Made by a program: the position numbers and the translations under genes
Notes under the pieces: model-generated
The model's input: the letters and a program-made list of their open reading frames with translations, nothing else
The model's database searches: none
Told to the model about the DNA's origin: nothing
Assembly: GCA_024277355.1 (NCBI GenBank)
Contig: JAJRVL010000011.1
Location: 30,001-62,000 of the forward strand
DNA from: an archaeon
GTDB lineage: Archaea > Iainarchaeota > Iainarchaeia > Iainarchaeales > 1-14-0-10-31-34
Direction: 5' to 3'
DNA length: 32,000 nucleotides
Shown here: positions 2,245-18,270 of the stretch, piece after piece
Layout: each line of letters opens with the position of its first letter
How positions within the stretch are numbered: position 1 is the stretch's first letter

Positions 2245-5133
2245 TTAATTGCTTGAAATCTTTCTTTTAGGTTTTTTTCTTTTCTTTTTTGGTTTTCTGA
2301 ATTTTCTAAACAAGACAAAAAAAATCACTCCAAACAAAGGATAAACTTGAAAAGGCAGTTCAATTAAAGGCAAAGAAAAAAAACCCGTTGAATTTATTTC
2401 CTGTAAAACAAAAGACTCATTAATTGAATCAACATATTTCCCTTTATTAAATAATTTTTTTGCAGAAGAAATGTTTTTGCCTGATAATTTAGCTGCCAGC
2501 AAAAAAACTTTTGCATCTTCTTTCATTTTATTTAAAGAAAAAACAAGTTCTTCTTCTATTCCATTTAAATTTTTTTCAAAATCAGCTAAATCCTGTTCTG
2601 CTGAAATCAAATACTCAAAAGAATTATTATCTGAATCAAAAAAAAATTTAAGTTCATTAAAAGAATTATTTAACTGTAAAAGTCTTTTTTTTGTTATTGG
2701 AGGGAGATAAACTTCACTTTCAGACAAAGCAGTATTTAGTTCTGGGAAAATGTCTTTAATTTCAGTTTTTTTTTCATTTAAAAAAAACTGTTTTTCTTTT
2801 AAAAATTTCTTTTTTTTCTGAATTTTTTCATTAACTGATTTATTTAAATCCTTAATTTCTTCATAAAAGATTAATTCATTTAAATCAGATAAATCTTCTT
2901 TTGTTTCAGGGAATTGTATTTGCCTTAGCCTTATACCCTGTTGTTTTTCATTAAATTCAATAAATAAACCGTTTTTTGGAATACAAGAAGTAACCGCTCT
3001 TAGCTGATTTCCTTCTTTTACGATTTCTTTAATGCAGGAATCAGTAAAAATTATGTCCTCTGAATTTCCAGGAAAAATAAAAGAAAACTCTGAATTAATT
3101 TCTTCATTTAAAGGATTAGGAAAAAAAAGTTCTTTTTTATCTGAAACTGTTTTAGATAATCGTTTTGCTGAAAGGAATTTTTCCAGTGAAGAAACAAAAA
3201 AAGAATTAATTTTATAATTAAATTTTTTTAAACCAGTTAATTCTTCTGAAGAAAATTCAAGAAAATCAAAATCCAGTTTATCTGAAGAAAAATGAGATGA
3301 AATTTTAGTTAGTTTTTCATTAAAAGCAGTTGTCTCTTTTGGAGAAAAAAAAGCAGGATAAAGCTTTGATAAAAAAGAAATTTTAGATAAAAGGTTTTTT
3401 GATTTAAAAAAAAGTAAATTAACTTCAGTTATTTCCTTGTCATTTAAATAAAGGTATTTTAGTATTCTTTCTTTTAATTCAGAACAGGAGTCGTAAAGAT
3501 AAGAATAATGGATTTTTTTCATTGATTTTAATGAATAAAAAGCATCAACAAAAGGAGAAAGGTTTTTGGCATAAAAAATTCTTTCAAGCGAATCAACACA
3601 TTGATTTAATGATTTTTCTGACTTCAGAAAAAATTTTTCCTGATTTTCTAAAGCAGCAGAAAGTTTTTCATTTAACAAAATTGCGTCTTTGCAGTAAAAG
3701 AGTTTTTCTTTTTTAAGTGCTTTTTCAAAAGAAGAAATTTTAACCGCAGTCCTTAAAGCAATAAAATTTATTTCAGCTGGTTTTTCAGAGAAATTAGTTT
3801 TAGTTAAATCATCTTCAATTGATTTAATTTTTGAATCGCATAAAACATTTAATTCATCAAATAATTCAACTGAATAAAAAGCAATATCTTCTTTAAGAAA
3901 AACAATTTCAGAGTTTAATTTTTTCAATGAATTAGTTTTTTTTCCCAAAGAAATTTTATTAAAATATTCTTTTTCAATTAATTCATTAAACTGCCTTTTT
4001 GACAGTAAAAGTTTTTCTTTTGATTCAGAAACAAAATCTTCAATTTCATAAACTTCATGCTGTTTTTCAGAAATAAATGTGTTTTCAAGTTCTTCAAATA
4101 AAAAACTTAAAACATTTGAATCAAATTTATTCAAAGAAGAAAGAGATAATTCATCTAATTCAACAGAGATTTGGTTAATATTAAATTTAATTTCGGCTGA
4201 AATTTCTTTATTCCTCTGATTTAAAGCAGTTTTATGTTCTGAAATATCTGAAACTAATCCAGAAAATTCAAATGCAACAGAATTTTCAGGAGACGCAAAA
4301 TCTCCAAATAAATTGAATAATTCATTTGTAGGCATTGAATTCAAAAGTTTAACACTTCTTTCCAAATCCACAAAATCAAACAAAAAAGAAAGAACAGAAG
4401 AAAAAGTTTTTTTCAGCAAAGGAACATAAAATTTTTTTGATTTAATTAAATTTAATGCATCTTTCTGATAAAAGCTAATTAAATCATTTGAAGTGAATTC
4501 ATTTAAATACAAAGAATAAAATCCTGCTTTAGAAGAAAATTCATTGAAATTCCTTGAAGCAGTAAAATAACGTGAAACAAAAGAATCAGATGTCTTGTTT
4601 ACTTCAGGAGTTGAAAGTTCATTTAAATTCTGGTTTAATAAAATAAAATCATCAAATAACTCTTCTTCTGGAATTAATTCAATTTGCTGTTTGTCAAGGA
4701 AATTTTTTTCAATTAAAATAAAAGAAAAAGCATTAAGATTTGCTTTGTCTGTAAACTCAAACGCTTTTTCTAAAGAAAAAGCTAATTCATTTGTTTTTTC
4801 AGGAAGGAAAGAGAAATTATTGTTTTGACATAACTGGTTTATTTGTTTGACAAGAGAAAGAGATTTATTAAAATAAAGCCAAGAAGAAGCCAAATTGTTT
4901 TTATAAGAATTTAAGTTGTCTGCTGATTCAAAAGAAAAGTTATTAGGAAAAACAAACAATTGTTTTTCAACTTTATTAAAGCAGTCTTCTTGTGAACTGC
5001 ATTTAGGTATTTTCTGGAAAGAATAAGAAGTTAAAGAAAGACACGCAGATTTGTATTCAAATTGTTTTTCCTGAGAAATGCATCCTGAAAAAAAAAGTAA
5101 AACAAAAAATAAAGCTAAAATTTTTAGTTTCAT
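2245..5133 (-). CDS. Large (962 aa) lipobox-type surface protein with C-terminal TM anchor and polybasic tail; family not recognised
   Basis: Long uninterrupted ORF. The N-terminus MKLKILALFFVLLFFSGCIS is a signal plus a lipobox-like SGC. The C-terminus has a TM helix (PLFGVIFFVLF) followed by RKFRKPKKKRKKPKRK. All overlapping + strand ORFs are short and low-complexity. Confidence 0.6.
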   Translation of the reverse strand: MKLKILALFFVLLFFSGCISQEKQFEYKSACLSLTSYSFQKIPKCSSQEDCFNKVEKQLFVFPNNFSFESADNLNSYKNNLASSWLYFNKSLSLVKQINQLCQNNNFSFLPEKTNELAFSLEKAFEFTDKANLNAFSFILIEKNFLDKQQIELIPEEELFDDFILLNQNLNELSTPEVNKTSDSFVSRYFTASRNFNEFSSKAGFYSLYLNEFTSNDLISFYQKDALNLIKSKKFYVPLLKKTFSSVLSFLFDFVDLERSVKLLNSMPTNELFNLFGDFASPENSVAFEFSGLVSDISEHKTALNQRNKEISAEIKFNINQISVELDELSLSSLNKFDSNVLSFLFEELENTFISEKQHEVYEIEDFVSESKEKLLLSKRQFNELIEKEYFNKISLGKKTNSLKKLNSEIVFLKEDIAFYSVELFDELNVLCDSKIKSIEDDLTKTNFSEKPAEINFIALRTAVKISSFEKALKKEKLFYCKDAILLNEKLSAALENQEKFFLKSEKSLNQCVDSLERIFYAKNLSPFVDAFYSLKSMKKIHYSYLYDSCSELKERILKYLYLNDKEITEVNLLFFKSKNLLSKISFLSKLYPAFFSPKETTAFNEKLTKISSHFSSDKLDFDFLEFSSEELTGLKKFNYKINSFFVSSLEKFLSAKRLSKTVSDKKELFFPNPLNEEINSEFSFIFPGNSEDIIFTDSCIKEIVKEGNQLRAVTSCIPKNGLFIEFNEKQQGIRLRQIQFPETKEDLSDLNELIFYEEIKDLNKSVNEKIQKKKKFLKEKQFFLNEKKTEIKDIFPELNTALSESEVYLPPITKKRLLQLNNSFNELKFFFDSDNNSFEYLISAEQDLADFEKNLNGIEEELVFSLNKMKEDAKVFLLAAKLSGKNISSAKKLFNKGKYVDSINESFVLQEINSTGFFSLPLIELPFQVYPLFGVIFFVLFRKFRKPKKKRKKPKRKISSN

Positions 5134-16947: not shown

Positions 16948-17346
16948 TTGAAGGGACAAATTTCAATTGAATATCTTACTTTAACTGCAATTGTTCTCCT
17001 TATTGTAGGAGTAATGTTTGTTTTTGCAATAACAACTGTAAATGAAAACGCAAGACTTAATTCAGCTTATTATGCTACAAGAGAATTAGCTAATGCAGCA
17101 GATGAAGTAAGTACTAGAAATGGAAGCACTATTGTGGTTGAAATTGAACTGCCTTCAGATGTAACTTCTTTTTCAACTTTTGGGACAGACATTACAATTG
17201 AAATGACGTCTCTTTTAAATTCATTTCAGGTTTTTGATTCAAGCAAGGCATCATTACAGCCGACAAATTTTTCCACTTCAGAAGGAACTCATTTTATTGC
17301 AGTGAATTCAACTGATTCAAATATCACTTTTACTGAACTTAATTAA
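16948..17346 (+). CDS. Type IV pilin-like protein with class III signal peptide (DUF361/Epd type)
   Basis: N-terminus MKG|QISIEYLTLTAIVLLIVGVMFVFAI has a short basic leader, a Gly at -1, the QxSxEYLxL motif and a hydrophobic helix. TTG start with GGTGA at 16939-16943. Confidence 0.8.
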   Translation: MKGQISIEYLTLTAIVLLIVGVMFVFAITTVNENARLNSAYYATRELANAADEVSTRNGSTIVVEIELPSDVTSFSTFGTDITIEMTSLLNSFQVFDSSKASLQPTNFSTSEGTHFIAVNSTDSNITFTELN

Positions 17347-17357
17347 AGGGATTATAA

Positions 17358-17714
17358 ATGAAAGGGCAGGTTTCAATGGAAGTAATTATTGGAGCAATAA
17401 TTTTATTGCTTGTATTGGTTTTTATCTGGATTTACAGTATTCAAACAAATGAAGGAATTGATGCATTAAAAAATTCAGTTGAATCAAAATCTTACTGCAG
17501 AGAAATTGCAGATACAATTAGTTCAGTTTATGCTTCAGGAACAAAAACTACAATAGAATTTTATTCAGAAAAAGACTTTAATTTAAGCAATGGAATGGTT
17601 GATGTTAATGGTTTTCTCTGCAGTTATTATGCTGAAGCAGAAGAAAAATTTATAGCAAAAGGAAACATAAGAATAAAAGATTTGAACGGGGTTGTCGTGA
17701 TTGAAAATATTTAA
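17358..17714 (+). CDS. Type IV pilin-like protein with class III signal peptide
   Basis: N-terminus MKG|QVSMEVIIGAIILLLVLVFIWIY. It starts 11 nt after the previous pilin gene. Confidence 0.75.
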   Translation: MKGQVSMEVIIGAIILLLVLVFIWIYSIQTNEGIDALKNSVESKSYCREIADTISSVYASGTKTTIEFYSEKDFNLSNGMVDVNGFLCSYYAEAEEKFIAKGNIRIKDLNGVVVIENI

Positions 17715-18270
17715 GAGAAAATGCTCGGCTGAGCAAAGCGAATGCCGTGCACCGTCACACCCGAGCGGAATCGGGTCGCGAGCGAAATCGCGAGGGCAGT
17801 CAAGTTTAATTGATTTAGTTATTGGGTTTTTTATTTTTGCTTTGATTCTTGCTTCAATTATGGGAACTATAAATAAAAATACAAAAGATTTCACTAGAAA
17901 TTCAGAAATAGATGAAATAAATCATGATTCTTTTTTTTCAGTAAAAGAATTAACTGAAACAAAAGGTTTTCCTGAAAACTGGGAAATATTAGATGAAAAT
18001 TCAGTTGAAAAAATAGGTTTAATTGAAAGGAGAAATACAATAAGTGAAGACAAAGTTGTTGCTTTTTCTAATATGACTTACAGCAAAACAAAAGAACTAC
18101 TTAAAATAGAAGGATATGATTATTATTTTGTATTAAACGGAGTAGATAATATTACTGCAGGAATAAATCCTGTTGGGCAAACAAAATATTCAATTATTAC
18201 TAAAAGAATTGTAAATTATAAAGGAAGTGAAGCTGAAATTGAATTCAGATTATATGAACTCTGGGAATAA
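17701..18270 (+). CDS. Pilin-like protein with an unusually long (33-aa) leader
   Basis: A pilin-type core SRG|QSSLIDLVIGFFIFALILASIMG is preceded by MKIFKRKCSAEQSECRAPSHPSGIGSRAK. The only in-frame start is TTG 17701. The leader is encoded by the GC-rich island. Confidence 0.6.
   Translation: MKIFKRKCSAEQSECRAPSHPSGIGSRAKSRGQSSLIDLVIGFFIFALILASIMGTINKNTKDFTRNSEIDEINHDSFFSVKELTETKGFPENWEILDENSVEKIGLIERRNTISEDKVVAFSNMTYSKTKELLKIEGYDYYFVLNGVDNITAGINPVGQTKYSIITKRIVNYKGSEAEIEFRLYELWE
17722..17800. other. GC-rich island with two tandem 6-bp-stem hairpins
   Basis: Hand count gives 51/79 G+C, against 14/60 in the next 60 nt. Hairpins are ACCCGA-GCGGAA-TCGGGT (17759-17776) and TCGCGA-GCGAAA-TCGCGA (17776-17793). 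An alternative long-range pairing is GCTCGG (17723-17728) with CCGAGC (17761-17766). Confidence 0.6.

Follow-up and report, generated by a model that had tools for sequence, protein, structure and literature searches.

Structured repeats within and beside genes

The Rickettsia palindromic elements (RPEs), which have been reviewed together with other intragenic MITE-type repeats (PMC10969869), are short, multi-copy hairpin-forming or palindromic repeats that stand in frame within intact genes, are also found near non-coding RNA genes, and are variably present among orthologues. The archaeal repeat described here shares all of these traits, and the in-frame carriage of RPEs may be regarded as its closest described analogue. 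RPEs measure roughly 100–150 nt, whereas the units of the archaeal repeat measure 18–61 nt, and the host here is a DPANN archaeon. Unlike the RPEs, moreover, the archaeal module is read in two frames with no conservation of a peptide, and its insertions lie only in a segment that is predicted to be removed by proteolysis, not in the mature protein.

A second point of comparison is provided by the REP/BIME elements of bacteria with their RAYT transposases, REPs being extragenic. Like these elements, the archaeal module is a short, GC-rich, imperfect palindrome with conserved non-palindromic bases that is found at gene ends in both orientations; unlike REPs, it is also intragenic, and no Y1/HUH transposase homologue was found in its genome. 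Leaders and trailers of split and intron-bearing archaeal tRNA genes, as well as intron transposition in the Thermoproteales, were reportedly described by Fujishima et al. in 2009 and 2010. As in those systems, a single sequence family serves here as intron, leader and trailer, which suggests that modules move between the removable parts of RNA genes. Those systems are, however, bounded by bulge-helix-bulge (BHB) motifs and restricted to tRNA genes, whereas here one copy stands in a protein reading frame, lacks a BHB, and would be removed, if at all, as protein.

The protein in question resembles the substrates of the prepilin peptidases PibD, FlaK and EppA, whose class III signal peptides (PMC4471445) likewise consist of a basic hydrophilic leader ending in Arg/Lys-Gly and followed by Gln and a hydrophobic helix, and the genome has genes for peptidases of this kind. 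Leaders of class III stay in the cytoplasm and are removed, and a length of 6–26 residues has been described for them (PMC4471445); the leaders of the neighbouring genes measure 3 residues, whereas the leader studied here has 32 and that of a paralogous locus in a relative about 95. A literature search returned no account of this family of modules, nor of class III leaders into which repeats have been inserted.

The pilin locus and its GC-rich island

The window, i.e., the whole stretch of 32 kb that was analysed, belongs to a genome (G000) of 1.13 Mb in 11 contigs, with a G+C content of 28% and a completeness of 96%. An earlier note on this DNA had drawn attention to a GC-rich island with two adjacent hairpins near the start of a pilin-like gene, and had placed it within an unusually long leader. 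The borders of the inserted segment were set by comparison with the loci L012, L015, L017 and L010 and with the close relative L038; its length is 78 nt, or 72 nt if the codons AGA AAA are counted as ancestral. The features of the locus are as follows (a slash marks the cleavage site or the point of insertion).

16948–17346 and 17358–17714, + strand: two upstream pilin-like genes, each with an ordinary 3-residue leader, MKG/Q
17701–17715, + strand: conserved TTG start and first leader codons (M-K-I-F-K), the TTG-AAA being shared by orthologues with and without an insert
17716–17793, + strand: inserted segment, 78 nt (26 codons), as against empty-site orthologues, e.g., TTG AAA ACA TTT AAG/GGG CAG
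17717–17778, + strand: full-length two-hairpin GC-rich repeat module (covariance model R1; cmsearch 60.6 bits, E 1.7e-14, model positions 1–61 of 61)
17723–17750, + strand: module hairpin 1 (covariance-model alignment and MFE fold; covariation in the family at six of eight pairs)
17759–17776, + strand: module hairpin 2, ACCCGA-GCGGAA-TCGGGT, with a 6-bp stem and a GCGGAA loop (all six stem pairs covary in the family)
17776–17793, + strand: extra 18-nt hairpin unit, TCGCGA-GCGAAA-TCGCGA, with a 6-bp stem and a GCGAAA loop
17794–17799, + strand: GGG CAG, the Gly/Gln prepilin-peptidase cleavage site, kept in all orthologues (Ala/Gln in L038)
17797–18270, + strand: mature pilin-like protein of 157 aa plus stop codon, with a hydrophobic N-terminal helix (QSSLIDLVIGFFIFALIL...), from the list of open reading frames

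The reading frame from 17701 to 18270 does run through the island, as had been claimed, but the leader counts 32 residues before the Gln and not 33. Its TTG start overlaps the end of the upstream pilin gene (stop codon at 17712–17714), an overlap also seen in orthologues, and because the insert contains no in-frame ATG, GTG or TTG, translation must begin at 17701. The basic leader ends in [KR]-G, the Arg at position −2 being encoded by CGA, the last codon of the 17776–17793 unit, and precedes Gln and a hydrophobic helix some 20 residues long (...SRG/QSSLIDLVIGFFIFALILASIMG), an arrangement that is kept in orthologues. A Pfam search of the 189-aa reading frame gave no family at E ≤ 0.1, and the neighbouring gene at 16948 reached 23.2 bits against PF04021 (class III signal peptide), below the cut-off of 23.7. 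Two homologues of A24 prepilin peptidases (PF01478, above cut-off) are encoded in the genome, at C11:59331–59648 and C2:521150–521530.

The unusual composition of the island was confirmed by recounting: 51 of the 79 nt at 17722–17800 are G or C, against 14 of the following 60, and no other part of the window is equally GC-rich. Taken over all spans of 79 nt in the 32 kb, the mean is 21.9 G+C (sd 4.7), the highest count, 52, belongs to the span that begins at 17723, followed by 40 in the next island. The hairpins at 17759–17776 and 17776–17793 lie exactly where they had been placed, and these two belong to a set of four perfect 6-bp hairpins with at least four G/C in the stem in the entire window. 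The minimum free energy of 17717–17796 is −30.5 kcal/mol (z = −1.82 against shuffles), while a 116-nt region gives z = −1.28 and the minus strand a similar value (z = −1.47). The folding energy by itself is thus unremarkable given the composition of the island, and the case for structure is based on how the repeat family covaries instead of on stability.

In an AT-rich genome, structured RNA genes usually show up as GC-rich islands, and the hairpins covary; both points would suit an independent gene for a small RNA or riboregulator, encoded on one or the other strand, that overlaps the gene junction by chance. This option, which had also been raised in the earlier note, is nevertheless highly unlikely: Rfam searches at gathering and permissive thresholds matched no family in the island, ARAGORN called no tRNA or tmRNA there, no sign of a separate small-RNA gene was seen, and the sequence is a dispersed repeat of about 40 copies in many contexts that is missing from the close orthologue L038.

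A dispersed family of two-hairpin modules

With the island as query against its own genome, partial matches adjoining tRNA genes were obtained, and when the GC-rich islands of the genome were considered together with the flanks of all tRNAs called by ARAGORN, one sequence family emerged in three settings, i.e., immediately 5′ of tRNAs as a leader, immediately 3′ of them as the reverse complement (trailer), and within long tRNA introns. Iterative nhmmer searches of the genome recovered about 25–28 copies, some of them orphans adjoining protein genes. The covariance model R1 was seeded with 17 other copies from the genome, the window copy being left out, and it matched the window once, over the full length of the model. 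In G000 as a whole it gave 43 matches at E ≤ 1, and the genome total is put at about 31–43 copies; the suggestion of a miniature mobile or repeat element has accordingly held up in its repeat part, in the form of a dispersed multi-copy family. The family is expanded in this genus of the Iainarchaeota/Diapherotrites: at E ≤ 0.001, R1 found 17–63 matches per genome across the genus (five other genomes) versus 0–16 elsewhere in the order. A simpler count of 5-bp hairpins with NCGRAA loops, about twofold over block shuffles genome-wide, is too noisy a measure.

The island consists of one copy of this 61-nt two-hairpin module and one extra 18-nt hairpin unit. The earlier note had spoken of duplicated hairpins; these are no local duplication with a selection of its own, but belong as two units to a family of hairpins that is spread over the genome and whose stems vary. 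The extra unit is 95% identical over 21 nt to C2:239712–239732, within the leader of tRNA-Gly(CCC), and its identity to C11:63758–63782 is 92% over 25 nt; its exact reverse complement stands behind tRNA-Leu(TAG) in the sister genome G004, and it is missing from the orthologue in G001.

The structure of the module was examined by RNAalifold and by pair counting in the 17-copy alignment, in which 95.3% of cells pair as against 68.7% in shuffles, and 12 of the 14 stem pairs have changed on both sides across the family. As a control, the 3′ partner was slid out of register, which lowered the scores greatly. Hairpin 1 is made up of outer GC/GC pairs, a GGCU/A-GCC stem, tandem G.A pairs formed by the conserved CUGA...GAA motif, an inner GC/GC stem and an AAA loop, and the unpaired CUGA and GAA positions are nearly invariant among copies, although short-arm variants of the module exist that lack the second GA. 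The window copy carries all the hallmarks of the family: both hairpins, the conserved CUGA...GAA and an NCGRAA-type loop. The competing long-range stem that had been considered possible (GCTCGG at 17723–17728 with CCGAGC at 17761–17766) is present as a complementarity, but it is private to the window copy; in the family only 43% of its cells pair, no better than in shuffles.

Leader copies precede tRNA-Gly, Ser, Asn, Thr and Ala and the 23S rRNA; reverse-complement trailer copies follow tRNA-Met, Leu, Val, Ser, Gly and Pro; the module forms the body of the introns of tRNA-Arg(GCG) and tRNA-Tyr(GUA); and other copies sit at the edges of mRNAs. In every case the hairpin end faces the gene, be it at the 5′ and 3′ ends of tRNAs, in the 23S leader, at the stop codons of protein genes or in the 5′ UTR of an L24e-like gene. 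The window copy has the same polarity as the tRNA leaders, its arm being distal and its hairpins abutting GGG CAG. Among the copies in reading frames of G000, a real frame is involved only in two pilin-like genes, the rest being chance frames or copies just past stop codons. Examples of copies in trailer orientation at or within a few bases of protein-gene stops were seen at C2:363534–363594 (protein ending ...EDKMFS) and C7:12381–12442 (...PKMKEK), and the copy in the 5′ UTR of the L24e-like gene lies at C3:35488–35540.

In-frame cassettes in orthologous and paralogous pilin genes

Orthologues of the pilin gene were found in 32 of 41 related genomes. Those outside the close clade have the same TTG start and leaders of 4–10 residues, such as MKTFKG/Q, MKTFNSKG/Q, MRTSRG/Q and MKISDNRG/Q; with leaders this short in the relatives, the island is an in-frame insertion of 72–78 nt that extends the leader to 32 residues. 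The close clade comprises six orthologues (support 100/99), five of which carry a cassette at the leader site; the sixth, on the metagenome contig L038, reads MKTSETA/Q with no insert, and its mature protein is 68% identical to that of the window. The cassettes differ among genomes: G001 has a short-arm module with one hairpin, G005 another arm variant, the metagenome contig L036 two modules, and G003 an AT-richer hairpin, while G000 and G001 are separated by two indels of 9 and 12 nt. The distances from the TTG to the Gly codon, 96, 75, 93 and 144 nt, are each divisible by 3 and free of stops, and every version ends in Arg-Gly/Gln, the Arg at −2 being always retained; this speaks for translation of the inserts, given that a sense copy taken at random would be open in only about 46% of frames. 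The cassette thus reads in the sense direction and keeps the frame, with the conserved TTG start (MKIFK...) on one side and the Arg-Gly/Gln site of the minor-pilin-like gene on the other. The idea that the leader is a tolerated insertion site gains from this comparison, in which short leaders occur in relatives and the inserts are in frame and end in R-G/Q.

No flanking direct repeat indicative of a target-site duplication was found at 17715/17716 and 17793/17794 in comparison with the empty sites, no terminal inverted repeats were seen to bound the module, and searches of the 96%-complete genome for PF01797 (Y1/IS200/RAYT) and PF07282 (TnpB) gave no match. In these three respects the module is unlike a classical MITE with its terminal inverted repeats, target-site duplication and partner transposase, which counts against reading it as an inserted element, as mobility is left with no mechanism. 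Mobilisation of the REP/RAYT or IS200/IS605 kind was rejected as a candidate, there being no Y1 transposase or TnpB in the genome.

The second pilin-like gene with a module lies at C11:18500–18975 (− strand), within the locus L005:1–3024, which corresponds to G000:C11:17334–20357. Its leader of 46 residues contains the same module and further hairpins and ends ...CGA GGG CAG, and the mature protein begins QISAEFVITLV... Across the genus the leaders at this locus measure 3 (MKG/Q, in G004, locus L048), 27, 29, 46 and 95 residues and are all open, the 95-residue leader of G002 (L045) holding four to five modules. In G001 the leader is longer still, perhaps about 110 residues in a putative frame that is interrupted by a run of masked bases (L044:400–480, G001:C9). 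A comparable variability is seen behind tRNA-Leu(TAG), where three genomes of the genus, compared at the syntenic locus (L049, L050 and L051, around position 1587), share the tRNA and the gene downstream of it but have completely different cassettes: the trailer is the module in G000, a different set of hairpin units in G004, and an unrelated AT-rich palindrome in the module's place in G003 (L050), whose tRNA is 94% identical. The cassette therefore turns over fast through gain, loss or swap of hairpin units, and the repeat is dispensable at orthologous sites.

The inserts could in principle have escaped the constraints of the coding sequence if they were removed from the RNA. BHB-type splicing of an mRNA is exemplified by the Cbf5 intron of Crenarchaeota, and it has been considered whether the island is a BHB intron or another RNA-level intervening sequence, spliced by the tRNA-splicing endonuclease and ligase. 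The module does form the bodies of the two tRNA introns named above, and its removal would restore a short leader. A custom scan for the motif (helix, 3-nt bulge, 4-bp helix, 3-nt bulge, helix), for which a tRNA-Asn intron served as validation, gave no candidate cut close to 17715 and 17794, however, its only matches being pairings of A-runs with T-runs. Furthermore, splicing would free the inserts from the need to be open and a multiple of 3 in length, yet all cassettes at both loci comply. The intron reading is for these reasons very improbable.

Conservation of pairing, not of the peptide

Comparison of the inserts in G000 and G001 allowed the level of selection to be addressed. The core of the insert is identical at 40 of 45 positions, against 74% for the mature coding DNA and 65% for its third positions, and five of the six differing codons of the insert are non-synonymous. 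Two of the substitutions compensate each other, turning a C:G pair of the hairpin 2 stem into G:C. The modules in pilin leaders are, in addition, read in two different frames and encode no conserved peptide. What is conserved, therefore, is the hairpins as nucleic acid and not the peptide that they encode. The claim of selection on structure, which had been based on the compensatory change within the island, is thereby strengthened by the covariation in the family and by a peptide that changes; the contrary outcome, a leader conserved as protein without conserved pairing, is the opposite of what was found among the orthologues.

How the insertion may be carried

The island is probably best explained as an insertion-prone structured repeat that is translated in frame and removed with the cleaved prepilin leader. 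The cassette would be read by ribosomes as a stretch of a class III leader of 32 residues, which would remain in the cytoplasm and be cut off by one of the two A24 prepilin peptidases of the genome. The mature pilin would be left unchanged and the insertion tolerated, and selection at the level of the gene would pass only those versions that are free of stops, have a length that is a multiple of 3 and end in R-G/Q. The gene probably tolerates the insert because the part of the pilin that carries it would be cut off before assembly. Both translation through the insert and cleavage of so long a leader are predicted from the DNA and its comparison with relatives.

Three observations speak against a purely passive tolerance. 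The copy has 65% G+C in a genome of 28%, where a dead insert should drift towards A+T; the core of the insert is better conserved than the neighbouring coding DNA; and the modules in pilin leaders are all in sense orientation, even though a random antisense copy is stop-free more often (64% of frames) than a sense copy (about 46%, as one frame of the conserved CTGA contains the stop TGA). For the retained G+C and the conserved core, a function or an ongoing conversion from other copies is at least as good an explanation as tolerance, and the restriction to sense copies fits such conversion or a role at the RNA level in processing, stability or the control of translation.

These same observations lend weight to a different account, in which the module is a working RNA element, perhaps a protein-bound hairpin that marks RNA for processing or protects RNA ends, and which in the pilin operon would tune the expression of the minor pilin downstream of it through endonucleolytic processing, mRNA stabilisation or the slowing of ribosomes soon after initiation. 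Pairing and high G+C are held against the A+T bias of the genome, with a core more conserved than coding DNA; the CUGA and GAA positions are almost invariant across copies though unpaired; the hairpin end always points towards the gene, and all leader copies are sense. The tandem G.A motif of CUGA...GAA also appears to resemble a box C′/D′ K-loop. That likeness comes from sequence, however, and the short-arm variants lack the second GA; a canonical K-turn for hairpin 1 was ruled out, as there is no 3-nt bulge. The element is, moreover, dispensable, as seen in the G003 tRNA-Leu(TAG) that is without it, in L038 with no insert and in the 3-residue leader of the second locus in G004; the content of the cassette is different in every genome; and a cut within or after the module would part the TTG start from the coding body. 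A working RNA element is on balance regarded as possible but doubtful. Rather unlikely, too, is its broader form, in which the repeat would be a functional and probably protein-bound RNA module on segments bound for removal (the ends of pre-tRNA and pre-rRNA, introns and mRNA edges), would have provided the raw material of tRNA introns, and would be kept GC-rich and folded in the pilin operon as a processing or translation control.

If the repeat is indeed carried in a leader that is translated and then cut off, the locus reveals a niche for structured repeats inside protein genes even where an archaeal genome is streamlined and AT-rich, namely a coding segment whose product is discarded. One module family would then link tRNA and rRNA flanks, tRNA introns and a cleaved signal peptide, which bears on the origin of archaeal tRNA introns and leaders. 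The predicted prepilin leaders, with 32 residues at this locus and about 95 in a relative, exceed the described range of 6–26 and amount to a statement on the substrate tolerance of A24 peptidases: leaders of about 30–100 residues, if true, would put the length that prepilin peptidases of archaea accept far above anything described. For annotation, it follows that genes of this type may be given a wrong start or be labelled pseudogenes, and that a GC island like this one is no reason to annotate a new RNA gene.

Additional observations on the tRNA genes

A second repeat type, an AT-rich palindrome of the form AAACTTTTTT..AAAAAAGTTT.ATCAAAAA, fills many tRNA introns and intergenic spacers; an example is the intron of tRNA-Gly(CCC) (L004:1593–1755, G000:C2:239804–239966), and it is a repeat of this type that stands in place of the GC-rich module after tRNA-Leu(TAG) in G003. 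At least 15 of the 36 credible tRNA calls made by ARAGORN in G000 have introns, of 43–149 nt. The program made no call for tRNA-Asp, tRNA-Trp or tRNA-Ala(UGC) in this genome, though the rRNA spacer contains a recognisable tRNA-Ala(UGC) around C7:31787–31868, and several tRNAs were probably missed because of unusual introns or flanks. Within the window itself, a "tRNA-Lys" with a 403-nt intron at 3821–4313 (G000:C9:33821–34313) was rejected as almost certainly a false positive, lying in AT-rich, coding-like DNA and not being called without the intron option. In most archaea the AUA codon is decoded by a modified CAU anticodon; in G000, ARAGORN reported a tRNA-Ile with the anticodon UAU at C2:129311–129385 (− strand).
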